Source of the DNA: an uncultured Erysipelotrichaceae bacterium
Lineage (GTDB): Bacteria > Bacillota_I > Bacilli_A > RF39 > UBA660
NCBI GenBank assembly: GCA_902794075.1
Contig: CADBGE010000001.1
Location: 276,477-340,476, forward strand
Direction of reading: 5' to 3'
Length of the DNA: 64,000 bases
Shown: positions 27,445 through 56,747 of the stretch, piece by piece
Layout of the letters: the number at the start of each line of letters is the position of its first letter
Position numbering within the stretch: the stretch's first letter is position 1
The notes under the pieces: generated by a model
Told to the model about the DNA's origin: nothing
What the model saw: only the letters and a program-made list of their open reading frames with translations
Databases searched by the model: none
Program-made: the position numbers and the translations under genes

Positions 27445-28653
27445 CTAAACTTTTATTCTAATTGGGTTGTACACGAACCTCATATCTGCTGGTACTATAT
27501 TTTGTACATCACAGTTACATTTTTCTATTCCTAAACGCATAATATTGAATGATCCATTTATGTCAGCATTAATGTATAAACCATTTGCAGTTCTAAACAT
27601 TCCTCTATTTATGCGTTTTCCTTTATATGTTTCATGCTTACAAATCTTTTCATTATCAATAAAACTACACTTAGATGTATATGCTTCATTCACTATAATC
27701 ATATGTATTCCTGCTAACTTACACTTGTAATTAAGCATTTGTATTAACATATTGTATGGCACAGAAACAAAGTTTTGATTGTTTGTCTTACCTATGTTGA
27801 TACTGTCTTTCCAACCATTGTTCTTACCTACAAATAATGTATTAAGATTGTTTGTTTTCATATATTCAACTATAGAATAAGATATCTTATGCATATAATC
27901 TTTTATCTTGTTATTTCTACGATTAGTAAGTCTTTGTATTCTTTTGCTTGTATGTTTATGTTTTGTCAACTTAGATTGAAGCTGTCCCTTTCTTTTGTTA
28001 TAGAAATGATTAATTGATTTTAATTTTCTTCCATCATATATCATTGACTGACATACATTTGATGTCAATGTAGCTAAATTGTTTAATCCAAGATCTATAC
28101 TTCCAAATCTATTATTGTTTTCTTTTAACTCATATTCTTTATTATATATTATTTCTATTATGATATGATTTCCTCTTGGTATTATTCTAACTTGCTGTAT
28201 GTTTTCTTTGTCTGTTTTTAGTTCAATCCTATTGTGTTTGTCTATCTTTAATGTCAATATATTGTTCTTTATTTTAAAACATTGGTTAGTGTATGTTACT
28301 ATATTTCTACCTTTTTCTTTGTCTTTATAATGCGGCAATCTAACTTTCTTGCCTTTTATCTTAACTGATTTTATTGCTTTATAAAAAGACTTATATTGTT
28401 TGTCTATCTGCATTAATATCTGTTGTGCGCATTGTGTGTAAGGCAGAGAACGATAATCTATTTGGTTTTCAGATGATAACCGTTTATTCAAATCATAATA
28501 TGAAAGATGTGTTTTTGTTTCTTTGTAATGCTGTCTTATCTGATATAGTGCATAGTTATATAGATTCTTAGACTTTAAGCACAACTGATCTAACATAGAA
28601 AAATATCTATGTCTATTGTTTATAATTACCTGTTGTGTCAATTGAATTTTCAT
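27445..28653 (-). CDS. tnpB: TnpB (OrfB) RNA-guided endonuclease-family protein
   Basis: 402 aa. RuvC-I GSIDLGLNNLATL (D), RuvC-II IIVNEAYTSKCS (E), RuvC-III INADINGSFNI (D). The zinc-finger region has only two Cys (KCSF...ICKHE). Confidence 0.85.
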   Translation of the reverse strand: MKIQLTQQVIINNRHRYFSMLDQLCLKSKNLYNYALYQIRQHYKETKTHLSYYDLNKRLSSENQIDYRSLPYTQCAQQILMQIDKQYKSFYKAIKSVKIKGKKVRLPHYKDKEKGRNIVTYTNQCFKIKNNILTLKIDKHNRIELKTDKENIQQVRIIPRGNHIIIEIIYNKEYELKENNNRFGSIDLGLNNLATLTSNVCQSMIYDGRKLKSINHFYNKRKGQLQSKLTKHKHTSKRIQRLTNRRNNKIKDYMHKISYSIVEYMKTNNLNTLFVGKNNGWKDSINIGKTNNQNFVSVPYNMLIQMLNYKCKLAGIHMIIVNEAYTSKCSFIDNEKICKHETYKGKRINRGMFRTANGLYINADINGSFNIMRLGIEKCNCDVQNIVPADMRFVYNPIRIKV

Positions 28654-29252
28654 ATGTCAACTTCCAAGTTTTCTTCTATCAACTTAAGTTTATTTTTTCT
28701 ACGTTTAGAATACATTTTCATAGCAAAACAATGTATAAGAGATATAATGTCTTCAAATATTTCTTTATCATCATTGTCATTATTTTCTAATATGTCATTC
28801 ATAACTATTATATCACAATTAAATGATTTAAATAACTCTTTCCACATATTGAAACTAACTCTACTAAACCTATCTTTATTTGATATTAACACTGTTTTTA
28901 TTTTATGTTCTATCACATCAAATAACATATCTTTAAAGTTTTGTCTGTCAAAAGACACACCTGATGCAATGTCTTTATATATTTTGTTCACTACAAAACC
29001 ATTGCTATTTGCAAATAATTTTAATGTTTCTATCTGATTTTCTAAATCTTTTTTCTGTTTAGAAGTAGACACTCTTGCATATATGACAATATCACGTATT
29101 GGGCTAATACCAGCTATAGCATAAACATCATCATCGTTATAAATCAAATGTTTATCATTTATTTTTGTTGTTCGTATCTTTCCTTGTTTGGCATATTTAT
29201 ATATAGTATTTCTATGCAAACGTGTTAATTTATGTACATCTTTATATTCCAA
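28650..29252 (-). CDS. tnpA: IS607-type serine recombinase transposase TnpA
   Basis: 200 aa. N-terminal MerR-like HTH (LTRLHRNTIYKYAKQGKI) followed by the resolvase catalytic block VIYARVSTSKQKKDLENQ. Confidence 0.85.
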   Translation of the reverse strand: MEYKDVHKLTRLHRNTIYKYAKQGKIRTTKINDKHLIYNDDDVYAIAGISPIRDIVIYARVSTSKQKKDLENQIETLKLFANSNGFVVNKIYKDIASGVSFDRQNFKDMLFDVIEHKIKTVLISNKDRFSRVSFNMWKELFKSFNCDIIVMNDILENNDNDDKEIFEDIISLIHCFAMKMYSKRRKNKLKLIEENLEVDI

Positions 29253-36981: not shown

Positions 36982-38607
36982 ATGAAGAACATTGATGAAT
37001 ATATAATAGAACAAGAATTTAATGACAACTTTTTAATAGAAGAAGGTTTTCTTTCATGGATAGCCAAACTTGGAAAAAAATTCTGGAATTGGTTAACAAG
37101 TAAAAATTATAAGTCAGATGATTTGGATTGGTCTCTTTATAATGACAAAGGAAAACGTCTAAAAATGAAGTGGTATGATATAAGCAATGATCATTTGACA
37201 TCAATGTTCAACGGAAAGAATGGATTAGAAGAACAGTTCATTAATATTATAAAAACATTAAAAAAATACAACAAGTTCAGTAAACATATACAAGGACGAA
37301 ACGCGATAAACATAAATAAGATTCCTCCTATAGTAATATTATATACAACTAATAAAAAATTCATATATTCATTACTTAAAGGTTCATATAAAAATGTATA
37401 TAACAAATATGAGAACAAGATTCATAACATTCAAAATCCTGTAATGATATTGTCAATAGAAATAGCAAGAGATAATGACAATAGTATAGAAAGAATTTGG
37501 GATGATTATATATATTCAGAAATAACAGATGCATTCTTGGATTCATATGATATTGTTTTCTTTGATGTAAACAACATAAATAAACTAAAAAAATATTTAA
37601 AGGATGAATGGGGAATTTCTAATTCGTTTCCTATTGCTGATGGAATAGAAGAATGGGAAGACATTAGTGATGAGATCGAAGATGAAGAAGATGACTCAAC
37701 TGAAGAAGATGATTCAGCAAAAGAAGATGATTCAACAAAAGAAGATGATTCAAACAATGGTTCAGAAAAAGCTCCAGACCCAGATGATGGTTCAGTAAAA
37801 ATTCATTCAGAAGATGATAAAAATATTAATCACACAATAGTTTTCTTTGATGAGAAAAAAGAAAAGGTAGCAGAATCAAACATTATAATATATAATAAAA
37901 AAACAAAGGATATATTTGAAGATATACTTGAAGGCATGCCTATAGATAACAAAGGATACTATAATCTATTGATGACTGATTTAGAAATTTCTGATAAATA
38001 TAGTGAATCAGACTATAGAAATGTAATATCTGATTTTATAATACCAGTAATATTTGAAAAGTGCACACATATTATAAAAGAAATAAATGAAAAAGAATCA
38101 ACAGCAAAGCAAATAAAAGTATATATAAAATTAGATGATGAAAAATATGAAAAGCACATAAAGGCATTAAGTGCACTTTCAAAGTCAAAGAAGATAAAAG
38201 AATCTATAAAAAAGATATTTATAATAATAGGCTCAACTACAGAAAATTTAATGGCCGGAGAAAAGAAAGCCGAAAAGACAGAAATAAAAGAATCACTTGA
38301 CATTGACAATTTATTTTGGATGCTTGACACATGGTTCACAAATAATGAACAGGAACGTTCAACATTTATGAGCATTATTGACAATTGTATAATAAAAAGA
38401 ACATATACTAAGAATGATCTTGCTAAAATATGTGATAATATAAACTTTGAAATAAGACCGTTTATCAATTTTCTATGTAAAGACGCTGTTGTATCAGACA
38501 ATAATTCTGAAGACTATAGCATTGATTATTATTATGAACTAAAAAAAGTAATTGATGCACTAATATCTAATAAAGCAACAAATAATAAATATGTTCGTTT
38601 TTCATAA
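36982..38607 (+). CDS. hypothetical protein with acidic low-complexity repeat and CTS-like leader
   Basis: 541 aa, the only plus-strand gene in this stretch. The N-terminus is MKNIDEYIIE. The central repeat is EEDDSTEEDDSAKEDDSTKEDDS. Confidence 0.6.
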   Translation: MKNIDEYIIEQEFNDNFLIEEGFLSWIAKLGKKFWNWLTSKNYKSDDLDWSLYNDKGKRLKMKWYDISNDHLTSMFNGKNGLEEQFINIIKTLKKYNKFSKHIQGRNAININKIPPIVILYTTNKKFIYSLLKGSYKNVYNKYENKIHNIQNPVMILSIEIARDNDNSIERIWDDYIYSEITDAFLDSYDIVFFDVNNINKLKKYLKDEWGISNSFPIADGIEEWEDISDEIEDEEDDSTEEDDSAKEDDSTKEDDSNNGSEKAPDPDDGSVKIHSEDDKNINHTIVFFDEKKEKVAESNIIIYNKKTKDIFEDILEGMPIDNKGYYNLLMTDLEISDKYSESDYRNVISDFIIPVIFEKCTHIIKEINEKESTAKQIKVYIKLDDEKYEKHIKALSALSKSKKIKESIKKIFIIIGSTTENLMAGEKKAEKTEIKESLDIDNLFWMLDTWFTNNEQERSTFMSIIDNCIIKRTYTKNDLAKICDNINFEIRPFINFLCKDAVVSDNNSEDYSIDYYYELKKVIDALISNKATNNKYVRFS

Positions 38608-38824: not shown

Positions 38825-40129
38825 TTATGCTATTCTTTTCTGTTTTATATTGTCAATCATGCAAAAATTGTTCTTTTCAGGAAATAATGTATTGTCATCC
38901 TTTGCATTCCAGTTTAACAGAATTCTTACCGCCTCGGACACCATATATTCAGCAGTCTTCACAGGAACATTTTGACCAAGCTGATATGAAATTTTTCCAG
39001 CATGAATATCATCAACAGCAAGTTCAAAATCATGAGGCATCCCCATTAGTTCCATATTCTCTCTAAGATTTATTAATCTATTTTCGTATGGATGAATAGT
39101 ATTTTCAATGTTACGGAACATTACAGCAGGACATGTATCAATTGACATCTTAGGTGTGAACATAAAGAATCCAAGTCCATGCTTATATTTATATTCAACG
39201 TCATTAATCTTTCTATGCCAAGATTCCTTTTGTTTATCTGTTATGTCATAATCATCAGTAAACTTTCTAAATCTATCAAACATATCCTGAGCACATAGTT
39301 CTGACACAAGATCTTTCTTATGCATCTTTTCTCGCCAATTTTCACCATATTCGGCTAGGAAGAAATCCATTAATATCTTAGCATAATACCTCCATGGAGA
39401 AATTTCATACTTAAGCCCCTTAGGAATTGCTTTGAAGTAGTCAGTCGCAGAAATATGCTCATTCACAAAGTTTATGATACGAGGTTCATCATTTCCTTCA
39501 GTTATCTTAAAGAAGAACACAAATGTACGAGGCCGCCTTTGACAGTTCTTATGAAGCTGAGTATCTGTTTTAAAATATGTAACCGTATAACCATACTTTT
39601 TGGCAAGTTCGTTAAACCAATTACGAAGTTGTTCTCCCTTTATTGTAAATAACGCAGGAGCATTCTCAAATATATATACACGTGGCTTAAGTTCAGATAG
39701 TGTATATTCTGCGATGAACTTCATATTACAGTTCTTAATATTCTTCGTTTCCTCGCCAAATGTCGACACAGTGCTAAGTCCTGAACAGATAGGCACAGCA
39801 ACAACTAGGTCAAGGTCTTTATTATATATATTAACTGAATTTCCTGATTCATCTACAATTTCTTGTTTCATATTGTCATCACCATCAAACATCTGCCTTG
39901 TGGCAAACTGATAATATGCAGGCATACGATTATGTTTCTTTAGATAATTTGTAAGATGACGTTCATTGCCACATCCAGTTATCTCATTATTCTTATTCTT
40001 CTTTATGTCATTGAGCCCCTTGAAGCTCAATATGAATTCTGCAGGATGTCCTATTGCATTCTCTGCACCTAAGTACATTCCACCAGTAAGTGGCTGTATT
40101 GCTGCCCATCTAATTTCTTCTTTAGTCAT
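38825..40129 (-). CDS. DNA (cytosine-5)-methyltransferase
   Basis: 434 aa with ordered C5-MTase motifs: PICSGLS (motif IV PC), FENAPAL (motif VI ENV-like), QRRPRTFVFF (motif VIII QxRxR), GQNVPV (motif X GNxVP). Confidence 0.8.
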   Translation of the reverse strand: MTKEEIRWAAIQPLTGGMYLGAENAIGHPAEFILSFKGLNDIKKNKNNEITGCGNERHLTNYLKKHNRMPAYYQFATRQMFDGDDNMKQEIVDESGNSVNIYNKDLDLVVAVPICSGLSTVSTFGEETKNIKNCNMKFIAEYTLSELKPRVYIFENAPALFTIKGEQLRNWFNELAKKYGYTVTYFKTDTQLHKNCQRRPRTFVFFFKITEGNDEPRIINFVNEHISATDYFKAIPKGLKYEISPWRYYAKILMDFFLAEYGENWREKMHKKDLVSELCAQDMFDRFRKFTDDYDITDKQKESWHRKINDVEYKYKHGLGFFMFTPKMSIDTCPAVMFRNIENTIHPYENRLINLRENMELMGMPHDFELAVDDIHAGKISYQLGQNVPVKTAEYMVSEAVRILLNWNAKDDNTLFPEKNNFCMIDNIKQKRIA

Positions 40130-40164
40130 ATATCTTTTATTTATATATAATTATAGTATTTTTA

Positions 40165-40887
40165 TCATTTTATGTAATTATAATGTCTATCATAAACATG
40201 CAAAGAACCGCAGTTATATTCAATGTATGGTTTATGTTCACTCATTGGAATACCGTTTGTAATTAAATCATCATATAACTTATCATATACATATTTATGC
40301 CAATGTAAATCATTGTTAAAACCAAACACCGCATCGCATGATCTTTGATATACTATATATTTCAATTCATATACTTCTATATTGTTATCAGGATGCTGTA
40401 TTTCATTTAAGAAACAATGAACATAATGCGTACACATAAAATCCATCATTCCATTTTTATTCCAATCAGTCTGCATCTGAGGTCTTGTGTATATCATAAC
40501 GGCCTGTCTTGTTAAATTATTTCTTAATAATGACTTAAGACAATATCCATACTGATTTCCGTTTTCTTCAGAAAAAATACACCATCCATAATTAGAATTA
40601 ATATACCCGTTAGGTGTACTTACAAGTTTCCATATCTTTGGTGTCTTTCCAGGAATGTCATTTACATTCAAAGATTCTGATTCATACCATTCTATTTCTT
40701 TATTTGCATAATCATAATTTGGTTCACGAATTATATAATCCTTGTCACAGATAAAATGAATGTTCTGCAGTTCAACTGTGTTTCCTCTAAATTCATTATT
40801 CTTATATTTGTTTTTAAATAATTTTAAAATGTCTTCCGTATTATAAGTATCATTGTTCATAATCATAAAGTTAAAAAATAAAGTCAT
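40165..40887 (-). CDS. deoxycytidylate (dCMP) hydroxymethylase, T4 gp42-like (thymidylate synthase superfamily)
   Basis: 240 aa. The blocks EIEWYESESLNVNDIPGKTPKIW, INSNYGW, AVMIYTRPQMQ, MDFMCTHYV (catalytic Cys), QRSCDAVFGFNND and GSLHVYDRHY match my recollection of T4 gp42 block by block. An Asp (NND) sits where thymidylate synthases carry the uracil-specifying Asn. The true start may be an internal Met at about 40866. Confidence 0.75.
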   Translation of the reverse strand: MTLFFNFMIMNNDTYNTEDILKLFKNKYKNNEFRGNTVELQNIHFICDKDYIIREPNYDYANKEIEWYESESLNVNDIPGKTPKIWKLVSTPNGYINSNYGWCIFSEENGNQYGYCLKSLLRNNLTRQAVMIYTRPQMQTDWNKNGMMDFMCTHYVHCFLNEIQHPDNNIEVYELKYIVYQRSCDAVFGFNNDLHWHKYVYDKLYDDLITNGIPMSEHKPYIEYNCGSLHVYDRHYNYIK

Positions 40888-40959
40888 TTATAATTATAAT
40901 ATATAAATAATGTTAAAATATTTTTAATTATACACGAGAATATATTATCAAAAACAATA

Positions 40960-41181
40960 ATGGCAAAAGTAGTAAAACTAAAGGACAGACAATCAAACCC
41001 TATTTTACCACTAACACGTTCTACTTTAGTAGAAATGAACAGTGGAGAATCTGCTCAAGAAAAAATTGATTCATTAGAAGATTCATTATTGGACATTGAA
41101 TATAATTTAGCAAACACGGCATTAGTTATTGATTCATCAACAAATACTTCTGAAATAGAATCACAACTTGCACAAATATAA
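40960..41181 (+). CDS. tail-fibre-associated protein, N-terminal anchor module only
   Basis: 73 aa. MAKVVKLKDRQSNPILPLTRSTLVEMNSGESAQEKIDSLEDSLLDIEYNLANTALV is a paralog of the first 55 aa of 41739-42221. Confidence 0.55.
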   Translation: MAKVVKLKDRQSNPILPLTRSTLVEMNSGESAQEKIDSLEDSLLDIEYNLANTALVIDSSTNTSEIESQLAQI

Positions 41182-41738: not shown

Positions 41739-42221
41739 ATGGCAAAATCTGTTAAATTAAAAGATAGAAATAATAATCAAATATTACCTATCACTCGTGC
41801 AACTACTGTTGAAATGAATGATGGAACTAATATGCAAGAGAAGCTAGATTCAATTGAAGATAATATATTAGAAGTTAATTATGATTCAACAAACACTGCA
41901 TTGGTATTTAGGAGCGGTATTGTGAAAACTTATACAATAACTTTGAAAGATGAAAATAAAGTTGTATCGGATATTACTTTAAATGGAACATTATATCAAA
42001 CTAAAGATTTTCCAATGGAAATTAACGAGGGAGATTCGTTGAATGTTTCTATTTTTTGTTATGATACATGTAATTATTCAACAAAAATGTGTGATACTAT
42101 TGTTTCAACATCAGAATCTTTTAGTATACAGAGTGTAAGTGGAAATATAGTAATAACAGTTAAAACAATTTCGCCATCCGGAGGAGATGATCCTGTTAAT
42201 CCTGTTATTCCAAGATCATAA
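41739..42221 (+). CDS. tail-fibre-associated protein (anchor module plus C-terminal domain)
   Basis: 160 aa that shares its N-terminal 55 aa with 40960-41181. Confidence 0.55.
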   Translation: MAKSVKLKDRNNNQILPITRATTVEMNDGTNMQEKLDSIEDNILEVNYDSTNTALVFRSGIVKTYTITLKDENKVVSDITLNGTLYQTKDFPMEINEGDSLNVSIFCYDTCNYSTKMCDTIVSTSESFSIQSVSGNIVITVKTISPSGGDDPVNPVIPRS

Positions 42222-42298: not shown

Positions 42299-44095
42299 AT
42301 GGCAAATATAGATAAAATAACATTAAGAGGTGTAAATTATTCCATCATTGATTCATCAGTTCCAAGTTATGTAAAAGGTATAACACAAACTGATATAACA
42401 AATTGGAATAATAAGTTAGATTCATTTACTGAAACTGACCCAAGTATTTCATCATACTTAAGAGCTATCACTGAACAAGATATAAGTAATTGGAATAATA
42501 AGTTAGATTCATTTACAGAAACAGATCCAACTGTTCCAAGTCACGTTAAATCTATAACACAACAAAATATTTCAAATTGGAACAGTAAAGTTTCTTATGA
42601 TTCACGTTGGACTGATGCAGCCGTTATTTCCTCACAAGCTATAAATTTAGTAAGTTCAAAAGCAGCCCCGGATTTTGATGAAGGCATTATTTTCAATGAC
42701 ATTAATAAGATATTCACCGGAACCAATTTAAAAAGCACTGTTTCTGGAAATAATACTGATTATAAATTCACACGTGAAGTAAATGGTGATGTTGCTGTGT
42801 TGTCGGATATTCCAGATATTTCAAGTTATGTTTCAAAATCTGAACTTAATTCTGCTGGGTATCTAACTTCATTCACTGAAACAGATCCTACAGTTCCAAG
42901 TCATGTTAAATCTATAACTGAACAAAATATTACTAATTGGAACACAGCTCATACAAATAGTCATACACATAGTAATAAGACAGTTATTGACGGAATTACC
43001 TCAACTGATATTTCAAATTGGAATAGTAAAACAGATAATGTTGGTACAATAACAGGTATCACAATGAATGGCGCAAGCAAAGGTACATCAGGTGTTGTTG
43101 ACTTAGGTACTGTATTGACTGAACATCAATCTCTTTCATCATACGCAACATCTGCAAATTATGATTCATCTACTAAGAAGATATATTTGAAACACGGAAC
43201 AACAACTTTATCTGAGATTGATGCAACAGACTTCATTAAGGATGGTATGGTTGATACAGCATATGTTCAAGGTGCAAACCTGGTAATATCATTTAATACT
43301 GATGCTGGTAAAGAAGCAGTTAATGTTCCTATTTCAGACATATTTAATGCTAATAATTATTATACAAAATCGGAGATTGATAATGCAAGTTATCTACAGT
43401 GGGATGAAAAATCATCAGTGGAACAAAACACTGATACATTAAGTATGAATAGATTATATATAGAAACTTCATCAGATACAGACATTCCGTTAAATGGTCA
43501 CATTGCATTTACTGATAATAATAGATGTTTTAATGGATTTTCAATATGCGATTACCAAGCAGATTATGGAGATAGTGTACGATATTCATTTACTCGAGAT
43601 GTAAAAGGCGATGTTGCTATAACAAATGATATAACTAAGGCTATCAATAGTTATGTTATTTCTGCATCATATCTTCAATCATTTACTGAAACAGATCCTA
43701 CCGTTCCCACACATGTTAAATCTATAACACAACAGAACATAAATGATTGGAATAATAAGTTAAGTGCAGAAACACAACTCAGTAAGGGTACAACTACTGG
43801 TTCAGGCAATGCTGTAACAGATATATCAGTTTCTAATCATCAGATAACATTAACGAAGGGTTCAACATTTCTTACTGCTCATCAAGATATAAAGACTATA
43901 AATAATCAGACAATAACTGGCACTGGCAATGTTACGATTAATGAACTTCCAACTGTGTCATCATCCGATAATGGAAAAGTTCTTCAGGTTGTAAATGGCA
44001 TATGGACCCTTGTGACTCCATTACATCTATATAGTGGAACAGGAACACCTGATAATTCACAAGGAAATAATGGTGACCTTTATATGCAAATTTAA
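42299..44095 (+). CDS. tail fibre protein with FTETDP(T/S)(V/I)(P/S)(S/T)(H/Y)(V/L)(K/R)(S/A)IT..(N/D)I..WN repeats
   Basis: 598 aa with four full copies of the roughly 28-aa repeat (aa about 42, 71, 199, 467) and one degenerate copy (GITSTDISNWNSK). Confidence 0.65.
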   Translation: MANIDKITLRGVNYSIIDSSVPSYVKGITQTDITNWNNKLDSFTETDPSISSYLRAITEQDISNWNNKLDSFTETDPTVPSHVKSITQQNISNWNSKVSYDSRWTDAAVISSQAINLVSSKAAPDFDEGIIFNDINKIFTGTNLKSTVSGNNTDYKFTREVNGDVAVLSDIPDISSYVSKSELNSAGYLTSFTETDPTVPSHVKSITEQNITNWNTAHTNSHTHSNKTVIDGITSTDISNWNSKTDNVGTITGITMNGASKGTSGVVDLGTVLTEHQSLSSYATSANYDSSTKKIYLKHGTTTLSEIDATDFIKDGMVDTAYVQGANLVISFNTDAGKEAVNVPISDIFNANNYYTKSEIDNASYLQWDEKSSVEQNTDTLSMNRLYIETSSDTDIPLNGHIAFTDNNRCFNGFSICDYQADYGDSVRYSFTRDVKGDVAITNDITKAINSYVISASYLQSFTETDPTVPTHVKSITQQNINDWNNKLSAETQLSKGTTTGSGNAVTDISVSNHQITLTKGSTFLTAHQDIKTINNQTITGTGNVTINELPTVSSSDNGKVLQVVNGIWTLVTPLHLYSGTGTPDNSQGNNGDLYMQI

Positions 44096-46219: not shown

Positions 46220-46889
46220 TTGCGGAAATTATGATAAAAACTCTTTTATTTGTTGAATAATTTCTTTTGAATTATTGCAACAATATTCCCAATCTATTCT
46301 TAATTCTTTCCAGCCGTTCTTTTTTAATAAATTATCCTTTCTTTTATCACAATCTTGTTGATATTTTGAAATTTTATGAAATCTCCCATCCATTTCTATA
46401 ACTTTTTTATCATCAACCCAAGCAAAATCTAAAGAAAATGAATAAAACGGATATTCATGAATATAATTTGTATTAAGATTTTCATTTTTAATAACATTCA
46501 TTAACCATTGTTCTGGATATGATATATTATTTTTTCCTCTTAAATGTGCCCATGTTGGTGCAAGTCCTAATTTATGTTTTTCTTTCATTATTTGTGAAAG
46601 ATTATTTTTTTCTGCATCAGATAATTTGTGACCTTTAAAAATTTTTCTATTGGGATTACATTTACAAAATGTTTCATGTCTTTTATAACATTGATATGAC
46701 ATTAACATTTCTCGTCCGCAATATTGACAAACAAAATTATTTTTTATTTTATTATCTAATCGTTCGGATCTATTAGGATTAAGCTTACAATATTTTTCAT
46801 GTAATCTGCATCCATTTAATTTTTTATATGTTTTATTACAAAACTTACAATTAAACATTTTTATTTTATTTTTTATTTATTGCGGAAAT
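46220..46889 (-). mobile_element. free-standing homing-endonuclease cassette bounded by 10-bp direct repeats
   Basis: ttgcggaaat occurs at 46220-46229 and 46880-46889, flanking ORF 46229-46858. The right copy is the 3' end of the Ser-like tRNA. The left copy is an orphan abutting the 5' end of the CAT tRNA-like gene. A third copy at 46046-46055 ends the TAA tRNA-like gene. Confidence 0.55.
46229..46858 (-). CDS. homing endonuclease-like protein (zinc knuckles plus DUF559/Vsr-like PD-(D/E)xK domain)
   Basis: 209 aa. Two CxxC...H...C knuckles (CKFCNKTYKKLNGCRLHEKYC and CQYCGREMLMSYQCYKRHETFC). The C-terminal FSLDFAWVDDKKVIEMDGRFH...W.ELRI is typical of DUF559-type endonuclease domains. Confidence 0.65.
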   Translation of the reverse strand: MFNCKFCNKTYKKLNGCRLHEKYCKLNPNRSERLDNKIKNNFVCQYCGREMLMSYQCYKRHETFCKCNPNRKIFKGHKLSDAEKNNLSQIMKEKHKLGLAPTWAHLRGKNNISYPEQWLMNVIKNENLNTNYIHEYPFYSFSLDFAWVDDKKVIEMDGRFHKISKYQQDCDKRKDNLLKKNGWKELRIDWEYCCNNSKEIIQQIKEFLS

Positions 46890-49152: not shown

Positions 49153-50184
49153 TTAAATGTCACCACTTAACTTTTTTACAGTGTATTCGATTGTTCTTTT
49201 TAGTCCTTCATTAATGTCAACTTCAGGTGTCCAATTCAAAAGTTCATTGGCTCTAGTATTGTCACATTGTGAATACTTATTTACCTCATGATCAAGAATA
49301 TTTCTAGATATCTTATATTCTCCTTCATATAGTTCAGGATATTTATCCCAATACTTTGAACTATCATTATATACCGCATCAATATTCGTATTCATAATAT
49401 TTTTTGCAATGTCATATAATTCTCTTACGCTGTATGAAGTATTTGAACTACAGTTTATTACATTAAATCCACTCAATGTTCGTGCACGATAAACAAGTTC
49501 AAGAAGATCATCTATATAAATATAATCACGGGCCTGTTTACCGTCACTGAAGAAGTTTGGAGTTCTGTCATAATATAGTTCACGAATCATATATCCAACA
49601 AACGGAGGCTGCTTTCTAAGACAATCAATATGAGGTCCATATACATTTGCAAATCTTATGCATGTTACATTCATTCCGTAAGTATCGCAAAATGACTGCG
49701 CAAATCGTTCAGCACAATACTTCGTATTTGGATATATTAGTGTAGGTAGATTATATTCATTGATGTCATCTTCTTTAGTTGGGAAGTCAACGACATTTTC
49801 ATACATTGCATTTGTTGATGCTTGTACAACACTATAAACATTATGACGTCTGCACAACTCAAGAACTTTCACAAGTCCATTTACATTTACATCAACTGCT
49901 TCTGCTGGATTACATTGACAATCAGGAAGCGGAGCAATTCCAGCAATATTGAACACACATTCTATTCTATTGTCTTCAAATAATTGTTCAAACTCTTTAC
50001 TGCGAATATCCATTACATATAGAATCTCATTTAAGTCAACGTCATCAAAAATTAGATTATCTTCATGACCATAACTCATATTGTCAACAAGAATAAGATC
50101 ATATCCAAGCTTATATAACTTATATGCAAGTTGTCCACCAATAAAACCTGCAGCTCCAGTAATTAAAATTATTTCTCTGTCCAT
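49153..50184 (-). CDS. NAD-dependent nucleotide-sugar epimerase/dehydratase (extended SDR)
   Basis: 343 aa with Rossmann ILITGAAGFIGGQL (TGxxGxxG) and catalytic YPNTKYCAE (YxxxK). Confidence 0.75.
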   Translation of the reverse strand: MDREIILITGAAGFIGGQLAYKLYKLGYDLILVDNMSYGHEDNLIFDDVDLNEILYVMDIRSKEFEQLFEDNRIECVFNIAGIAPLPDCQCNPAEAVDVNVNGLVKVLELCRRHNVYSVVQASTNAMYENVVDFPTKEDDINEYNLPTLIYPNTKYCAERFAQSFCDTYGMNVTCIRFANVYGPHIDCLRKQPPFVGYMIRELYYDRTPNFFSDGKQARDYIYIDDLLELVYRARTLSGFNVINCSSNTSYSVRELYDIAKNIMNTNIDAVYNDSSKYWDKYPELYEGEYKISRNILDHEVNKYSQCDNTRANELLNWTPEVDINEGLKRTIEYTVKKLSGDI

Positions 50185-50211: not shown

Positions 50212-50892
50212 TCATTCACTAAATTTCAGTACTTGTTCTGTTCTATACATTTCGCCATTTCTTAGTATATCATAATATATGACATTTGAAATATATAGCT
50301 TATCATATTCTTTTACGCATTCACAAAGGTCAATGAACTTATTTATGTCATTAAAATAATATCCGCCTGCACAAAATTCAGAACTAATCACACGTTTCTC
50401 AATTATGTTTAACACAACATCATCAGATGTAGTTGATACATAACTTTTATTAGAAGGATTTATTTCAATTACATCTTCAAGTTTATATGTATATACTGTA
50501 TTTTCATTATTTAGCTCGGCAATATTAAAACTTGCATCGGCATCTTTGATGAACAATCCATATCTACTGTATGGTATCTGATTTACTGTCTGAAGAATAG
50601 TATCAACAACATTTCTTGTTTCATTAACAACAATGACATGCGTCTTATCAACAAAACTTTCATTATTAAGTTGAATTTCAAGCATATTCTTAATATGATA
50701 TATGTCATCAATCTTCTTATTTACTACAATATATATCTTATTGAAATCATCCAATGGAAGATCTAACATATTGTTTATGATATTCATCCGTCCAAAATCA
50801 TTTAATTTAAAAATCTCTGGAATGAATTGTTCATATATTTCATTATATGCAGCAGCAGGAATTACAAGTATTTTATTATTGTTCATAGTCAA
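50212..50892 (-). CDS. nucleotide-diphospho-sugar transferase-fold protein lacking the NTP-binding glycine loop
   Basis: 226 aa, collinear with the N-terminal domain of 51792-53177 (VVDTI vs AIETI, KDADAS vs LDCDLV, AGGYYF vs AGVYGF, YISNVIY vs YVSYIYN). It has LVIPAAAYNE instead of GGLGTR. Confidence 0.45.
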   Translation of the reverse strand: MTMNNNKILVIPAAAYNEIYEQFIPEIFKLNDFGRMNIINNMLDLPLDDFNKIYIVVNKKIDDIYHIKNMLEIQLNNESFVDKTHVIVVNETRNVVDTILQTVNQIPYSRYGLFIKDADASFNIAELNNENTVYTYKLEDVIEINPSNKSYVSTTSDDVVLNIIEKRVISSEFCAGGYYFNDINKFIDLCECVKEYDKLYISNVIYYDILRNGEMYRTEQVLKFSE

Positions 50893-50897
50893 AAAGA

Positions 50898-51788
50898 TTA
50901 AAATTTTTCATTAAGAATGTTATTAATTGTGTCAATTAAGTATATAGTAACAGAATCCTTTTTAGCATATTGTACTATTCGTAAGAAGTTCATAAGTTGG
51001 AATATTGCATATGAATCTTTGTAAAATGAATACTTACTAAAGTTTATGTCAAGTTGTTCATCAATGTATTTGCAAATCATATCATAACGAGTCTTATCAT
51101 ATTCCTTGCTATTATACATTAATGTACTCCACTTATATTTAGTATCCTGTCTAAGTTTCACAATGTCGATAATCGGAGATTCAATGAAAGAATCTAAAAA
51201 ATCAATCAAAGCAAATTCATTATCCCTAAATATGATGTTTGAGAATGTCAGATCGCCATGACACTTCCCAACATAAAAGTTTTCAAACTTCATAACAGGC
51301 TTAAATATTTCATCACATCGTTCAATGATTTTCATTATTGATGAATAATACGGAGAATCATTTTTATATATATTCATCATATTCTTTTTAACTGACATCC
51401 ATTTCTTATAAAGTTCATCAGTTTCATATTCAGCAACGCATATACTTGATTCAATTTCATTACGAACATATTCGCAGATAGTTGATATAAATTTATCAAT
51501 AATCATCTTATCTGCATACTCAAAGAATGAAACAAAATTTTTTCCATATACATATTCCATTATGCCATGATATTCGCCAGGCCATGTTTCATCAGAATTT
51601 ATAATCTTTGGCACAACAATATTCTTTGTTATGTTTGTTTTTGCCGCAGATAACTGTTTATCAAACTGCGCCTTAAGTCTTGGAATATATTTTTCATTCT
51701 TTGTGTACTTATCAATAACAAGAATGTCTTTATTCTTTTTAATGTCTATGTAACATCCTGAATGTCCTTCTACTTCAATTTTTTTCAT
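50898..51788 (-). CDS. APH/choline-kinase-family small-molecule kinase
   Basis: 296 aa. GKCHGDLTFSNIIF...ALIDFLD is Brenner's HGDxxxxN catalytic loop plus the D-F-x-D metal-binding motif of the aminoglycoside / choline / anomeric sugar kinase family. Confidence 0.7.
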   Translation of the reverse strand: MKKIEVEGHSGCYIDIKKNKDILVIDKYTKNEKYIPRLKAQFDKQLSAAKTNITKNIVVPKIINSDETWPGEYHGIMEYVYGKNFVSFFEYADKMIIDKFISTICEYVRNEIESSICVAEYETDELYKKWMSVKKNMMNIYKNDSPYYSSIMKIIERCDEIFKPVMKFENFYVGKCHGDLTFSNIIFRDNEFALIDFLDSFIESPIIDIVKLRQDTKYKWSTLMYNSKEYDKTRYDMICKYIDEQLDINFSKYSFYKDSYAIFQLMNFLRIVQYAKKDSVTIYLIDTINNILNEKF

Positions 51789-51791
51789 AAT

Positions 51792-53177
51792 TTATTCTAA
51801 TGATATTTGGTTGTTCTTTATAATTTTTTGAAATTCGTCCTTATCTATAAACTTTGAAAGTCCATTTATACTGTTTACATTTATAATGTTCTTTACTTCA
51901 GCTTTATATGCTGCAAGGAATCCTACATCACTATCTTCATATACATATATATTGTTTGATGATATGAAAGGATATTGCATTATTATTTTTTGATATACCT
52001 CAGAATTTGGTTTTCCATTTTTAACATTATCACCAGTTATAATATAATCAAATAAATCATCAATTTCAAAATATTTTAATACATTATCAACATTTTTCTT
52101 TGATGCAGTTGTCGCAAGACATACAATATTTCCATTTTGTTTTGCATGATATAGATATGAATATAGATTTTTATTAATAGATATTTTGTCAAAGTATTTC
52201 TTATATACACGAGATTTTATTTTCTTTACTTCATTTAGTTTAGATTCATCAAGCTTGAGTGCATTAAGAAGTTCATTGATTCGTAATCCAAAATTACTAT
52301 AATAATTATCTTCAGTTAATTCGTAATCATATATCTTTTTAAATGTTTCCTTATATGCTAAATAATTTGCGTTTTTAGTATCAATAAGTGTTCCATCAAG
52401 ATCAGATATATATAATTTCTTAAACTTATTATTAGACGATATGAAATTCATAATCTCGTCACTAGTTCCAATTGAAGTATATTCATCAAGATGTGACAAT
52501 ATAATTTTCGCACCATCATTAATCATTAGATTATATATATAAGATACATAATATTCGTTTGCTTCAAAGTCAGAAACGTTTTTGTCAAGAATCATCTTTG
52601 CATATTTCTTAAACGACTTTCCATTAGAAAATCCATACACACCAGCCAACGCATGATTAGAAATTGGACATTTTTCTGCAGTACGTTTGACTAAATTATT
52701 TTCATTTATTTCAGCATAACTATACTTGTGAAGATTAGAATCAAATGACAATAGAAATCCATCAATGGCTTCATCAGCATCAATTCGTTCAATTATATCA
52801 TATAGATCATTACTTTTAAATACAAGATCACAATCAAGAACTACACATATATCATCATCATCAATAAATGATTCAGCACACATTATAGTCTCAATTGCGC
52901 CTTTAGTTAAATAATCTATTTGAACTAAATTAAATTCATCAGCAAAATTCCAACCAATCTGATTTACTTTTTTTATATAAAAATCGTTCATAATCTCATT
53001 ACGAACAATCATTGTTAACTTTGTTCTATAACTATTCTTAATTTCATTAAATCCACTAAGAGCATATTCAAATAAATATTTCTCAAACAAATTAATAAAA
53101 GGTTTAGGAGAATTATACATATCGGATGTTCGCGTTCCTAAACCGCCCATTGGCATTATAATATGTAAATTTTTCAT
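51792..53177 (-). CDS. bifunctional sugar-phosphate nucleotidyltransferase / HAD-superfamily hydrolase or mutase
   Basis: 461 aa. N-terminal IIMPMGGLGTR (GxGTR nucleotidyltransferase loop). C-terminal half carries ISDLDGTLIDT (HAD motif I DxDxT) and YEDSDVGFLAA (HAD motif IV). Confidence 0.7.
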   Translation of the reverse strand: MKNLHIIMPMGGLGTRTSDMYNSPKPFINLFEKYLFEYALSGFNEIKNSYRTKLTMIVRNEIMNDFYIKKVNQIGWNFADEFNLVQIDYLTKGAIETIMCAESFIDDDDICVVLDCDLVFKSNDLYDIIERIDADEAIDGFLLSFDSNLHKYSYAEINENNLVKRTAEKCPISNHALAGVYGFSNGKSFKKYAKMILDKNVSDFEANEYYVSYIYNLMINDGAKIILSHLDEYTSIGTSDEIMNFISSNNKFKKLYISDLDGTLIDTKNANYLAYKETFKKIYDYELTEDNYYSNFGLRINELLNALKLDESKLNEVKKIKSRVYKKYFDKISINKNLYSYLYHAKQNGNIVCLATTASKKNVDNVLKYFEIDDLFDYIITGDNVKNGKPNSEVYQKIIMQYPFISSNNIYVYEDSDVGFLAAYKAEVKNIINVNSINGLSKFIDKDEFQKIIKNNQISLE

Positions 53178-53282: not shown

Positions 53283-54893
53283 ATGAGAACATTTGATGAG
53301 TTCTTAAAAAATCATTATAAATCTAAAAATGTAAGCATTCTTAGTGAGGATGATTCACAAAAAAATAGTGATAATATAAATATAGATAATAATGTATCTG
53401 AAGAAATTGTTGTAGCAAATGATGTAAAGGATACTGAAAATATAGTTGATAAAATGGATAAAAAATCTGGATATTTTTTCAACAATATTATATTTTTCAC
53501 AAATAGTAGAGATCCCTCAAAAAATAAGACGTTAAAAAATCTTGAAGATGCTGTAAAAGGAACTGATATTACTATATATACGTTTGTTGCTGAAGAAGTT
53601 GATTATAAGGCAACAGAAAAAAGTATTAGTATAAAAGACAGTAAAACAAAGTTAAAGATCGATAAACAGTCAAACATTGATACTATTGTTATTGTTCGTC
53701 TTGGAGCACAAGATTCAGAACTTTGTGTTGAATGCATAAAAGAATTACAACAGTGGGGATTATTTGTTCTTAATCCAATTCAGAATGCAAAGAAAGCTTC
53801 TAATAAATATTCATCAGCTGTTCTTATGGAAAGATATGGAATTCCACAGCCAAAGTTTACATTGCTTACGAAGAATGACATTGAAAAAGGTGATGAAAGT
53901 CTTTCAAAAAAATTAAAGAATATTTATTCGGACATTGGAGATGATGAGAAAGCCGATAAGAAAAAGGAATATGTTGTAAAATTGTTAAATGGTCATGGTG
54001 GTACAGGTGTATTTATGTGCAACGGAAAGACAATATTAAGTATCCTTCAAGCTATGTTTGCTGTTGATGAAGAACTTGAACTTCTCTGTCAGAAGAAAGA
54101 AGAAGCTGACGGAGGAGACATACGGGTTCATGTTCTTACAATGAGAACAAAGCAGATGATACTTGCTCAGATGAAGCGAGTTAAGATATCTGGAGATTTC
54201 CGTTCAAATGTTTCTTTAGGTGCAACCGCAGAAAAAGTTGAATTAACTAAAGAACAAGAAGATATTGCATTGAAGGTTGCAAAGATTTCTGGTATGCCGT
54301 GGTGTGCAGTTGACATAATGCCATTGGTTAAAGATTCTAATCCAGAAATTGGCGATAATGTTGTACTTGAATATAATTCATCCCCAGGTACAGAAGGAAT
54401 ATCTGATGTAATTGATGAAAACTTTGTTAAGATTCTTCTTGATAATATAAATGACATTAATGAACTTGTTCTTTATCCAAAATCTATTGGATACATAGAG
54501 AATATTACATTTAAGTTCAATGATGATGATGCACCGGTTACAATGGAAGCAAAACTTGATACAGGTAACGGTGCATATGCTTCAACAATAGGTTGTGAAA
54601 AGGTTGAAGTTAAAGATGATGAGGTTGTTGCCACACTTAATGACAAGGAATATCATTTTAAGAAACATGGATCATCAAATCCTCGAGTAGGTCAGGTAAC
54701 AGAATCAAGAACTACAGTTATTGTTCCTGAGATTCAGATTGGAACTCGTAAATTGCTTGATGTTGAATTTGCTCTTGTTGACAATAGAAAGAAGTCAACA
54801 AAGATACTACTTAATAGAGATATATTATCTAAGATGGCTTACATGATTAACCCAGCTCAGAAAAAAACATTAGATGAAAATAAAAAAATATGA
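53283..54893 (+). CDS. RimK-type ATP-grasp ligase fused to a C-terminal retropepsin-like (Zn_protease/DUF785-like) domain, with CTS-like leader
   Basis: 536 aa. LNGHGGTGVF, GGDIRVHVL, SGDFRSNVSLGATAE and CAVDIM...LEYNSSPG parallel E. coli RimK blocks as I recall them. C-terminal MEAKLDTGNGAYASTIG resembles the AKxDTGA signature of the RimK-associated protease-like domain. The N-terminus is MRTFDEFLKN. Confidence 0.7.
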   Translation: MRTFDEFLKNHYKSKNVSILSEDDSQKNSDNINIDNNVSEEIVVANDVKDTENIVDKMDKKSGYFFNNIIFFTNSRDPSKNKTLKNLEDAVKGTDITIYTFVAEEVDYKATEKSISIKDSKTKLKIDKQSNIDTIVIVRLGAQDSELCVECIKELQQWGLFVLNPIQNAKKASNKYSSAVLMERYGIPQPKFTLLTKNDIEKGDESLSKKLKNIYSDIGDDEKADKKKEYVVKLLNGHGGTGVFMCNGKTILSILQAMFAVDEELELLCQKKEEADGGDIRVHVLTMRTKQMILAQMKRVKISGDFRSNVSLGATAEKVELTKEQEDIALKVAKISGMPWCAVDIMPLVKDSNPEIGDNVVLEYNSSPGTEGISDVIDENFVKILLDNINDINELVLYPKSIGYIENITFKFNDDDAPVTMEAKLDTGNGAYASTIGCEKVEVKDDEVVATLNDKEYHFKKHGSSNPRVGQVTESRTTVIVPEIQIGTRKLLDVEFALVDNRKKSTKILLNRDILSKMAYMINPAQKKTLDENKKI

Positions 54894-55690
54894 AGTCGTT
54901 AAAACATTACATAAAATCTGATAAATCATATTTAATTTCATTATCTGAAAAACTGTTAATCAATAAGAACTATGACATTTATAATTATCGTCCAACAACG
55001 AGAGAAGAACTAAAGGCTTCAATACAAGAACACTATAATAATGATATATATGATTTAAATGATATAGATGTATCTAATATAACTGACTTTAGTTCACTTT
55101 TTTACAGAGATAAAAATACAGGAAACAAAGATTTTAACATTAGTGATTGGAATGTAAGCAATGGTATGAATTTTTCTTTGATGTTTTATGAATGTAAAGA
55201 ATTTAATTTTGATATAAGTAAATGGAATGTTAGTAATGGCATTGATTTTTCACATATGTTTTCTGAATGTCACAAATTTAATTGTAACTTGAGTGATTGG
55301 GACGTAAGTAATGGCAAGAATTTTTCATATATGTTTAATGAGTGTGAAAACTTTAATCAAAACTTAAAATATTGGAATGTAAGTAAATGTAAAGATTTTT
55401 CTGGTATGTTCAAAAAGTGCTATAAATTTAATTCAAATTTAAGTAAGTGGAATGTAAGTAATGGAGAAGATTTTTCTTCAATGTTTTATAATTGTCAAGA
55501 ATTTAATTCTAACTTAAGTAAATGGGATGTGAGTAGTGGAGAAGATTTTGCATGGATGTTTGGATATTGTAAAAAATTTAATTCAGACATTAGTAAATGG
55601 AATATATCTGATAAATCAATTTTATATATTAATCAGATGTTTTATGGCTGTCCTATAGATGATAAATATAAGCCAAAGGGAGTACAATGA
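54890..55690 (+). CDS. DUF285 / BspA-type repeat protein with CTS-like leader
   Basis: 266 aa with seven tandem units of about 25 aa of F..MF..C..FN..(I/L)S.W(N/D)VS.G..; 4-nt overlap with the upstream gene. The N-terminus is MKSLKHYIKS. Confidence 0.7.
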   Translation: MKSLKHYIKSDKSYLISLSEKLLINKNYDIYNYRPTTREELKASIQEHYNNDIYDLNDIDVSNITDFSSLFYRDKNTGNKDFNISDWNVSNGMNFSLMFYECKEFNFDISKWNVSNGIDFSHMFSECHKFNCNLSDWDVSNGKNFSYMFNECENFNQNLKYWNVSKCKDFSGMFKKCYKFNSNLSKWNVSNGEDFSSMFYNCQEFNSNLSKWDVSSGEDFAWMFGYCKKFNSDISKWNISDKSILYINQMFYGCPIDDKYKPKGVQ

Positions 55691-55871: not shown

Positions 55872-56747
55872 ATGCCTACTAAAAAAATTAAAAATTATGA
55901 CATATACTTTGGCGGATATGTTCAACGAAGTAAAAGCATTAAGAAAATTTCATTTGATAATTCATCTTTAATATTATATAAAGGCGACGAATACGATTTA
56001 AATTTTACTGTATATCCTAATGATGCTTTTTATAGTGAAATTGAATGGGCATCAAGCGATGAAAAAGTCGTTAGTATTGATGAAGACGGACATATTGTTG
56101 CCTTAAAAGGTGGTAAAGCTACTATATCTATTACAATAAACAATATTGTAGCAAGATGCTTTATTACAGTTCGTGAAGTAATTCATTTTGAAGATCCATT
56201 AGTAAAAAGTATTCTTGTTCGCAATTATGATTTTGATGGTGATGGAGAGATTTCATATATAGAGGCTGCACGTGTAACATCTATACCATTTCCAATGTTT
56301 ACAGGCATGCCAATACAATCATTTGATGAACTTTCATATTTTAAAAATGTTAAAACAATTGCACCACATGCTTTTGATTCTTGTGATAAGTTAACAAGCA
56401 TATCATTTCCTGCAGGATTAGAAAAAATAAATAAAAATGCATTTTCATATTGTAATTCATTAACTGAAATTATGATTACACCAAATGTGAAAAGTATTGG
56501 TACAAACGCTTTTTCTGATTGTGCAAATTTAAAGGTTGCTTATATAAATAGTAATATTCCCCCAAAGAATGGTAACAAAATTCTTGACAGATGTCCAAAT
56601 TTAGATAGAATAATTGTTCCAGGCGAATATGTTGATGATTACCTTAATGCTATAAATTGGGGTATGCTTAATGATGAAGAATATTTATACTATTCATATA
56701 TAATTATACAATGTTTTGATTATACGTTTGACTTCTTTTTATCATGA
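55872..56747 (+). CDS. Big_2 Ig-like domain plus BspA-type LRR_5 protein
   Basis: 291 aa. N-terminal SLILYKGDEYDLNFTVYPNDA...WASSDEKVVSIDEDGHIVALKGGKATISI is Big_2-like. The C-terminal half has AFDSCDKLTSISFPAGLEKINKNAFSYCNSLTEIMITPNVKSIGTNAFSDC repeats. Confidence 0.65.
   Translation: MPTKKIKNYDIYFGGYVQRSKSIKKISFDNSSLILYKGDEYDLNFTVYPNDAFYSEIEWASSDEKVVSIDEDGHIVALKGGKATISITINNIVARCFITVREVIHFEDPLVKSILVRNYDFDGDGEISYIEAARVTSIPFPMFTGMPIQSFDELSYFKNVKTIAPHAFDSCDKLTSISFPAGLEKINKNAFSYCNSLTEIMITPNVKSIGTNAFSDCANLKVAYINSNIPPKNGNKILDRCPNLDRIIVPGEYVDDYLNAINWGMLNDEEYLYYSYIIIQCFDYTFDFFLS

Follow-up and report, generated by a model that had tools for sequence, protein, structure and literature searches.

In a 64-kb window of DNA (64,000 nt of contig CADBGE010000001.1, the whole stretch that was analysed), two adjacent genes on the minus strand encode a homologue of thymidylate synthase (TS) that is very probably a deoxycytidine monophosphate (dCMP) hydroxymethylase of the T4 gp42 type, and a divergent protein with the fold of cytosine-C5 methyltransferases (C5-MTases), referred to here as MTase-like. 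Taken as a whole, the pair is best explained, tentatively, as one transcription unit of a system for cytosine replacement and hypermodification. Both genes lie where the initial annotation of this DNA had placed them (40165–40887 and 38825–40129). The annotation saw a paradox in the juxtaposition of a C5 enzyme with a C5-replacing one; this paradox is genuine and not peculiar to this DNA, as the pairing is found again in at least four deep phage lineages. The hydroxymethylase adds a member to a known type. The MTase-like clade and its association with dCMP hydroxymethylases are a new variation on known enzymes, with a real chance of new chemistry. The literature describes MT-TET-GT clusters, ThyS-GT associations, 5-hydroxycytosine pathways and CmoX, but no paper was found that gives this clade a function or that links a C5-MTase clade to dCMP hydroxymethylases or gp42.

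The product of the first gene (240 residues) aligns over residues 35–237 with T4 dCMP hydroxymethylase (PDB 1b49, E 4.1e-54), a match far beyond chance, and is 46% identical to T4 gp42 over 200 residues; matches to phrog_160 (E 3e-32) and Pfam PF00303 (E 2e-7) agree with this. The gp42 blocks quoted in the initial annotation are all present (EIEWYESESLNVNDIPGKTPKIW, NSNYGW, MIYTRPQMQ, DFMCT, RSCDAVFGFNND and GSLHVYDRH). The protein was aligned with E. coli ThyA, T4 gp42 and RB69 gp48, and diagnostic positions were read in E. coli (Ec) ThyA numbering. It displays W80, Y94, D143, C146, D169 and D177. The catalytic Cys (Ec C146, T4 C148) is found in a DFMCT block that aligns to DFMCT of T4. The terminal Asp of FGFNND, rightly singled out earlier as occupying the uracil-selector position, aligns to T4 Asp179 (Ec N177), the residue mutated to Asn in PDB chains 6l18 and 6a9a. 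Asp replaces Ec L143, which gives an acidic residue at the water-access position, and Asp is kept at Ec D169, where the controls read as published, with Asp in T4 gp42 and Asn in RB69 gp48. In deposited phages the nearest relatives are the annotated dCMP hydroxymethylases of T4-like phages, all <60% identical.

Recent work (2026) has established that some ‘gp42-like’ enzymes, namely RB69 gp48 and DLP3 gp80, are flavin-dependent 5-hydroxy-dCMP synthases marked by Asn at Ec Asp169; Asp at Ec N177 marks the use of dCMP rather than deoxyuridine monophosphate (dUMP), and an acidic residue at Ec L143 a hydroxymethyl rather than a methyl product (PMC13326640). Because Asp143, Cys146, Asp169 and Asp177 come together with an identity to RB69 gp48 of only ~20%, the assignment is as firm as sequence allows. 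Every sequence diagnostic now available, including the Asp169 test, supports the predicted synthesis of 5-hydroxymethyl-dCMP. Ordinary ThyA or dUMP hydroxymethylase identity is ruled out by Asp at Ec177, and 5-hydroxy-dCMP synthase identity by Asp at Ec169 and by the low identity to RB69 gp48. It is thus very improbable that the TS homologue is a dCMP methylase or a 5-hydroxy-dCMP synthase, in which case the phage DNA would contain 5-methylcytosine (5mC) or glycosylated 5-hydroxycytosine rather than 5-hydroxymethylcytosine (hmC). It is true that few residues decide product specificity within the superfamily and that RB69 was long misannotated through gp42 similarity (PMC13326640), but Ec169 is Asp and not Asn, Ec143 is Asp and not a bulky hydrophobic residue, the resemblance is to T4 gp42 and not to RB69 gp48, and relatives are accompanied by T4-type alpha-glucosyltransferase genes, the T4 prototype of which acts on hmC.

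The likeness to T4 gp42 (PDB 1b49, 6a9a) extends to homology over the full length, the catalytic Cys, the cytosine-selecting Asp179, the acidic water-access residue, Asp at Ec169 and the status of early phage gene. Differences are a 10-residue insertion (HPDNNIEVYE) after the catalytic-Cys strand, a longer N-terminus and, above all, the setting: the window phage is unrelated to T4, has a GC content of 29%, is largely unannotatable and has neither a gp1-like kinase, nor a gp56-like dCTPase, nor a T4 alpha- or beta-glucosyltransferase within the 64 kb.

The second gene product (434 residues) had been described as a canonical C5-MTase with all catalytic motifs. Part of this description stands: Q197, R199 and R201 (QRRPR, thus QxRxR), an ENV-like ENA (E155-N156-A157), GQNVP and the motif X Asn (N387) are kept, and Pfam PF00145 is passed with 55.1 bits (cutoff 22, E 1e-14), with a match from residue 97 on only. 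The remainder does not. Motif I reads IQPLTGG and not FxGxG, and motif IV reads P-I-C-S around Cys115, with neither the expected PC dipeptide nor PCQ. The NCBIfam model TIGR00675 ‘dcm’ scores 38.3 bits, below its threshold of 100.65, and the family profile aligns to solved C5-MTases from motif IV onward only (DNMT1 3e-13, M.HhaI 6e-5). Since motifs I, IV and ENV are altered and TIGR00675 failed, the term canonical is not apt, and the protein is a divergent member of the C5-MTase fold. The fold itself is clear. An AlphaFold2 (AF2) model (pLDDT 92, pTM 0.91) retrieves only C5-MTases from the PDB with Foldseek, with MET1, DNMT1, 3g7u, CmoX, HaeIII and HhaI on top (probability 1.0, TMq 0.48–0.59, identity 10–16%), and global profile alignment with M.HhaI by hhalign gives a probability of 98.5%. 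The M.HhaI sequence used has 327 residues and, in length and motif numbering, is in agreement with the PDB chain. In this alignment, Phe18, Gly20, Gly22-Gly23, Asn39-Glu40, Pro80-Cys81-Gln82, Glu119-Asn120-Val121, Arg163, Arg165 and Asn304 of M.HhaI correspond to Gln12, Leu14, Gly16-Gly17, Asn55-Glu56, Ile114-Cys115-Ser116, Glu155-Asn156-Ala157, Arg199, Arg201 and Asn387 of the window protein.

The window protein has the fold and the motif order of canonical C5-MTases (M.HhaI, M.HaeIII, DNMT1/MET1), along with the catalytic Cys, the Glu of ENV, QxRxR, motif IX and the Asn of motif X; as in these enzymes, the stretch from motif VIII to motif IX is variable. Besides QPLTGG in motif I (no Phe18, Gly20 replaced by Leu), P-I/V-C-S in motif IV and ENA for ENV, the window protein differs by a 20-residue insert before motif II and a helical recognition domain, and its family by the lack of a restriction-enzyme partner, its absence from bacterial genomes and its occurrence in cytosine-replacing phages. 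Conservation was tabulated over 121 family members. The equivalents of C81, E119, N120, Q161, R163 and R165 show no variation, that of N304 is retained in 118 sequences and that of E40 is Glu or Asp in 117. The Pro80 position is Val or Ile in the subgroup of the window, and Pro-Cys is retained in a more distant T4-like subgroup. The variable region (motifs VIII–IX) falls to 26% identity versus 50–57% in the core, a pattern as in ordinary DNA methyltransferases. As the catalytic residues are invariant across sequences otherwise 25–30% identical, the chemistry appears to be retained. This pattern says that the protein would still bind a flipped cytosine-type base and perform Cys–C6 chemistry. 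Domain fusions, considered as a clue to function, are found in two long proteins, P0222 (768 residues) and P0242 (1462 residues), with the domain at the N-terminus (IIPLIGGS, CPCAGLS, ENAPGL, AQNVP). Their tails have no Pfam match, are Arg/Gly-rich and of low complexity, and one shows C2H2-like Cys/His spacing; by sequence these proteins look eukaryotic, or like an endogenised viral gene.

The two genes are separated by 35 nt, and no terminator-like site was found between them. A terminator-like hairpin follows the stop codon of the MTase-like gene. A weak promoter-like candidate precedes the pair; in a scan of the region the number of such sites was not above shuffled expectation, so that the scan is uninformative. 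The gene order TS, small open reading frame (ORF), MTase-like is kept in a relative with a 68%-identical MTase-like protein. Convergent with the MTase-like gene, a 541-residue protein (36982–38607, plus strand) contains an acidic repeat (EDDSTEEDDSAKEDDSTKEDDS) and has no family match; weak homologues adjoin the MTase-like gene in three other loci.

The MTase-like family is rare in deposited phages (9 of 50,697 records, as against 973 with gp42 relatives) and abundant in metagenomes, where a word search yields 749 relatives and an exhaustive search with a hidden Markov model (HMM) 359 clusters at 50% identity (E <= 1e-30). IMG/VR contributes 283 viral contigs with a relative, many of 120–435 kb. 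A pattern scan of one genome per species over 185,579 bacterial and archaeal species returned three loci, all on contigs of 47–410 kb binned into metagenome-assembled genomes (MAGs); one of these contigs has an identical viral counterpart in IMG/VR. With only three loci in so many species genomes, the family is effectively phage-restricted. The idea of a host-acquired orphan of a restriction–modification system is ruled out by the same count, by the MAG-binned nature of all three contigs and by the lack of a nuclease partner.

The neighbours of the MTase-like gene were clustered over 79 fetched loci. A gp42-like TS homologue is found at <=10 kb in 26 of them at E < 1e-25, and in 36 when divergent ones are included, almost always on the same strand. 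All these TS homologues have Asp at Ec177; at Ec169, 35 of the 36 have Asp and one has Cys, and none shows the 5-hydroxy signature. A thymidylate-kinase-like gene, that is, one resembling deoxynucleoside monophosphate (dNMP) kinases, occurs in 27 loci. In 34 loci a GT-B-like glycosyltransferase (GT) gene lies directly upstream of the MTase-like gene, and its stop codon often overlaps the start codon of the latter. Nucleotidyltransferase-kinase fusions (18 loci), epimerases (17), haloacid dehalogenase (HAD) hydrolases (13), T4-type DNA alpha-glucosyltransferase (PF11440), aminosugar enzymes and dUTPase-like genes complete the picture, and in a 400-kb phage two TAGT-family transferases follow immediately downstream. 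In four loci (L009, L011, L017 and L075), the gene is surrounded by replication or structural genes, and modification genes are lacking in the vicinity. The MTase-like family depends on an Asp177 TS homologue and the reverse is untrue; the ‘methylase’ probably belongs to a DNA-modification pathway. A second, truncated TS paralogue (~195 residues), absent from the window, is encoded directly downstream of the gp42-like gene in the jumbo-phage loci L010 (6811–7386), L013 (4261–4851) and L030 (4221–4811). Cys146, Asp169 and Asp177 are present in it, Ec143 is Thr or Ala, Glu stands in place of Ec Gly173, and the Trp80 region is missing.

Carriers range from jumbo phages of the rumen and gut to marine T4-like phages such as Pseudoalteromonas phage vB_Psh_XG4 (XG4), and also comprise TIM5-like cyanophages and Bacillus phage G. 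Among cultured phages, XG4, the TIM5-like cyanophages and phage G all have an Asp177 TS homologue and DNA glycosyltransferases. XG4 provides the best match for both window proteins. Its TS homologue and MTase-like genes are 4.6 kb apart, with genes for a small HAD-like protein, a nucleotidyltransferase-kinase fusion and two GT-B-like proteins between them, and a gp56-like dCTPase gene after the cluster. In phage G, gp301 is the viral protein structurally closest to the MTase-like model (TM 0.73), and its gene neighbours two ‘alpha glucosyl transferase’ genes, a sugar-1-phosphate thymidylyltransferase and a HAD hydrolase. At 13 kb from gp301, gp319 (L090, 4149–5195), annotated ‘thymidylate synthase’, has the hydroxymethylase signature Asp143/Cys146/Asp169/Asp177; a dCMP deaminase gene is found near it. 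These residues and neighbours predict glucosyl-hmC in the DNA of the cultured 497-kb phage G. In TIM5-like cyanophages, which encode a DNA alpha-glucosyltransferase (PMC10087341), the MTase-like gene is 2.4 kb from a ‘ThyA’ gene with Asp177. In the ‘ThyA’ of cyanophage S-TIM61 (L002, 8757–9593), Ec N177 is replaced by Asp and Ec L143 by Cys. Judged by these residues, TIM5-like ‘ThyA’ probably modifies dCMP instead of synthesising thymidylate.

A mechanism in three steps can be proposed. According to the sequence diagnostics, the gp42-like enzyme would turn dCMP into 5-hydroxymethyl-dCMP with methylene-tetrahydrofolate. As the gene context suggests, the modified nucleotide would then be phosphorylated and incorporated in place of deoxycytidine, and its hydroxymethyl group would receive a sugar that the enzymes of the operon at 49–53 kb (nucleotidyltransferase/HAD, kinase and epimerase) had activated. 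Lastly, the MTase-like enzyme would flip a cytosine, attack C6 with Cys115 and transfer a methyl group from S-adenosylmethionine (SAM). Methylation would be post-replicative and would concern cytosines not replaced by hmC, so that every cytosine would be C5-substituted. This role of a SAM-dependent methylase on cytosines that escape replacement is our preferred proposal, held with reserve. It fits the data because the cofactor contacts equivalent to Glu40 and Asn304 are kept and the recognition region is variable.

Several observations weigh against it. Among the 121 family members, the Phe18 position is never aromatic (Gln, Ile or Val), Leu takes the place of Gly20 and Ala that of Val121 throughout, the Gln82 position is Ser or Ala with two exceptions (Asn, Gly) and the Trp41 position is mostly non-aromatic. 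Such universal remodelling of the cofactor pocket fits poorly with a plain methylase; in M.HhaI, the Q82A mutation lowers methyl transfer ~16-fold and opens the pocket to bulkier groups (PMC3526304). Furthermore, because a gp56-like dCTPase is encoded beside the cluster in XG4, L071 and L079, almost no unmodified cytosine is expected, and a residue of a few percent would be little selective reason to keep the enzyme across very deep divergence. In the window itself, the search proposed in the initial annotation for a dCTPase, a dNMP kinase and glycosyltransferases came back empty: over the 64 kb of a genome that is probably much larger, HMM and jackhmmer models built from relatives detected neither a dNMP kinase nor a gp56-like dCTPase, and no recognisable DNA glycosyltransferase, including the GT-B ‘family B’ homologue, was found. 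Sugar-nucleotide genes are present 9–13 kb away.

The same pocket changes count in favour of a competing explanation, somewhat less probable than a plain methylase, in which a repurposed enzyme of C5-MTase fold acts on hmC or glycosyl-hmC in DNA, or uses a donor other than plain SAM. By attacking C6, Cys115 would make the 5-substituent reactive, so that it could be exchanged, substituted or removed, or else a bulkier group would be transferred, in either case as an integral step of hypermodification. Such an enzyme would account both for the exclusive association of the family with dCMP hydroxymethylases and DNA glycosyltransferases and for the remodelled pocket of every member. C5-MTases reportedly can add and remove aldehydes and couple thiols at hmC in vitro, as described by the Klimasauskas laboratory. 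Further support comes from the tight linkage over deep lineages to Asp169/Asp177 TS homologues and DNA glycosyltransferases, from the frequent overlap of the MTase-like start with the GT stop, from the co-occurrence of a dCTPase in some genomes and from the restriction of the family to phages. The replacements of Gln82 by Ser or Ala and of Val121 by Ala, together with the altered motif I, point in the same direction, since M.HhaI Q82A, a precedent from engineering, admits larger groups (PMC3526304). A natural precedent is CmoX, a C5-MTase fold with Cx-SAM as donor (PMC12783734), the structure of which (PDB 8yf3) is among the fold matches. On the other hand, the SAM contacts (the E40-like acid and the N304-like Asn) are conserved, the Arg diagnostic of CmoX is lacking, no gene for the synthesis of another cofactor recurs consistently as a neighbour in the loci scanned, and the recognition region varies as in ordinary sequence-specific methyltransferases.

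Two other readings are less likely than these. The enzyme could be an ordinary methylase with a target outside the phage genome, either host DNA, for takeover or nucleotide recycling, or RNA (tRNA included); in that case, it would be linked to hmC genes only because early genes of nucleotide metabolism are co-regulated. Host DNA offers the C5-H that hmC-substituted phage DNA does not, the cytosine-binding and catalytic residues are intact, and the four loci with no modification genes nearby would be accounted for. This reading is nevertheless unlikely, as the gene is mostly embedded between genes of DNA-level glycosyltransferases with overlapping stop and start codons, and the fold search shows no resemblance to the RNA enzymes DNMT2 or NSUN. 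To our knowledge, no phage strategy requires C5 methylation of host DNA. Less probable still is a catalytically inert protein, be it a relic of an ancestral methyltransferase–TET–glycosyltransferase (MT-TET-GT) system or a base-flipping, DNA-binding partner that aids the adjoining glycosyltransferases. Motifs I and IV are non-canonical, GT genes adjoin the MTase-like gene and several phage C5-methyltransferase clades are inactive in E. coli (Burke et al., PMC8256090), but catalytic residues that stay invariant at 25–30% overall identity, and the maintenance of 359 clusters at 50% identity, are hard to reconcile with loss of activity. Collectively, these considerations narrow the resolutions of the paradox that the initial annotation had listed without choosing among them.

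Known modification systems place the preferred methylase proposal and its competitors in context. In phage clusters of C5-methyltransferase, TET/5mYOX and GT genes (PMC8256090; bioRxiv 2023.12.21.572611), a phage-specific C5-methyltransferase also stands beside DNA glycosyltransferases (including the TAGT family), epimerases and sugar-activating enzymes, and the end product is presumably glycosylated hmC as well. There, the methyltransferase supplies 5mC to TET, whereas here the hydroxymethyl group is added before replication by a TS homologue. No Tet_JBP match was found among the ~60 window and neighbour proteins scanned by Pfam. With no TET among the scanned neighbours and hydroxymethylation preceding replication, the MTase-like protein is left without an obvious role. 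CmoX, the C5-carboxymethyltransferase of Synechococcus phage S-B43 (PDB 8yf3), is likewise a phage enzyme of C5-MTase fold, and its product is a handle for hypermodification (PMC12783734). Each has a gene for an ATP-dependent ligase in its neighbourhood, CmoY for CmoX and a RimK-like ATP-grasp protein for the window enzyme, but the window ligase has another fold and lies 13 kb away. CmoX has an Arg at the HhaI Asn304 position and an adjacent CmoA. The window protein has Asn387, and no CmoA was seen among the neighbours scanned, in a scan of the window that was not exhaustive. A CmoX-like carboxymethyltransferase is ruled out by Asn387, conserved as noted above. Lastly, the arabinosylation clusters of RB69 gp48 and DLP3 gp80 (PMC13326640) resemble the XG4-type architecture in that genes for a TS homologue, a nucleotidyltransferase-kinase fusion, GT-B transferases, a small HAD phosphatase and a thymidylate-kinase-like protein come together. 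The TS homologues of these clusters differ, with Asn at Ec169, flavin binding and no MTase-like gene beside them.

The rest of the window (GC content 26–34% throughout) is tailed-phage-like, with tail-fibre and baseplate genes, lysozyme and ribonucleotide reductase, and most of its ORFs have no family match. Megablast of 16 kb against the 50,697 deposited phage genomes gave no close relative. The DNA comes from an uncultivated low-GC phage, probably a jumbo phage. A sugar operon on the minus strand (Table 1) is located at 9–13 kb from the gene pair. Homologues of its nucleotidyltransferase-HAD fusion are found in 12 MTase-like loci and of its epimerase in 16, and the pairing of nucleotidyltransferase and kinase is a single fusion protein in 18 related loci.

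Table 1. Features of the hydroxymethylase/MTase-like gene pair and of the sugar operon, with window positions
Feature	Coordinates	Strand	Basis
Terminator-like hairpin, ~210 nt downstream of the MTase-like stop codon	38592..38614	-	
Divergent, phage-restricted C5-MTase-fold protein, 434 aa	38825..40129	-	PF00145, hhalign, AF2 + Foldseek; catalytic Cys115, Glu155, Arg199, Arg201, Asn387
gp42-type dCMP hydroxymethylase (5hm-dCMP synthase), very probable, 240 aa	40165..40887	-	PDB 1b49, phrog_160, Pfam PF00303, ThyA-numbered diagnostic residues
Promoter-like site upstream of the two-gene unit, weak candidate	40939..40966	-	10/12 sigma-70 consensus positions
NAD-dependent NDP-sugar epimerase/dehydratase	49153..50184	-	Pfam Epimerase 2e-43; phrog_540 1e-51
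226-aa protein inside the sugar operon, placed by position only	50212..50892	-	no Pfam or NCBIfam match
APH/EcKL-type small-molecule kinase, sugar kinase by context	50898..51788	-	Pfam EcKL and APH matches
RmlA-like sugar-1-phosphate nucleotidyltransferase fused to beta-phosphoglucomutase-type HAD	51792..53177	-	phrog_3980 and HAD phrog; HAD_2 2e-26; TIGR01208 3e-10; TIGR02009 1e-19
RimK-family ATP-grasp ligase, 536 aa, possible part of the modification module	53283..54893	+	Pfam RimK 9e-24; TIGR00768 5e-32

The RimK-family ligase gene is divergent from the sugar operon. A 72%-identical homologue is encoded beside a TS/alpha-GT/MTase-like cluster on a rumen jumbo-phage contig (L010, 3797–5470), a conservation far above that of the MTase-like protein (72% versus 42%). 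By analogy with CmoY, this ligase might attach an amino acid to the modified base or sugar. Between the tail-fibre genes and the sugar operon, 46229–46858 (minus strand) encodes a DUF559/MTES_1575 restriction-endonuclease-like protein, which could be a nuclease that tells modified from unmodified DNA.

Other observations concern the remainder of the phage genome. An IS200/IS605-type TnpB-like transposase is encoded at 27445–28653 (minus strand; phrog_506, E 2e-52), with an overlapping ORF of 200 residues upstream (28650–29252, minus strand). Two small plus-strand ORFs (40960–41181 and 41739–42221) have a near-identical N-terminus, MAK.VKLKDR.N..ILP.TR.T.VEMN. In a tail-fibre-like protein of 598 residues (42299–44095, plus strand), a ‘SFTETDPTVPSHVKSITQQNISNWN’ unit is repeated several times. 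A DUF285 ‘Mycoplasma’ repeat protein (54890–55690, plus strand, E 8e-78) and a protein with BspA-type leucine-rich repeats and a Big_2 domain (55872–56747, plus strand) belong to repeat families common in surface proteins of Firmicutes and Mollicutes, which agrees with the MAG bins to which related contigs were assigned (Firmicutes, Clostridia and Bacilli).

A C5-methyltransferase is expected to be idle in a genome with C5-substituted cytosines, yet the MTase-like gene is conserved with hmC and glycosylation genes across very distant phages, so that the T4 model of cytosine replacement found in textbooks is incomplete. As Bacillus phage G, Pseudoalteromonas phage XG4 and cyanophage S-TIM5 are cultured, the question can be addressed now. 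If the MTase-like protein is a methylase, many phages would have mixed genomes with 5mC and glycosyl-hmC, which matters for restriction, CRISPR and sequencing-based calling of modifications. There is a smaller yet appreciable chance that the clade is a new kind of DNA-modifying enzyme, acting on pre-installed hmC or with a donor other than plain SAM, the covalent Cys–C6 mechanism of which would exchange, extend or edit the C5 substituent in glycosyl-hmC hypermodification. If so, a methyltransferase fold would have been recruited for new hmC chemistry, with direct use in epigenomic tools.

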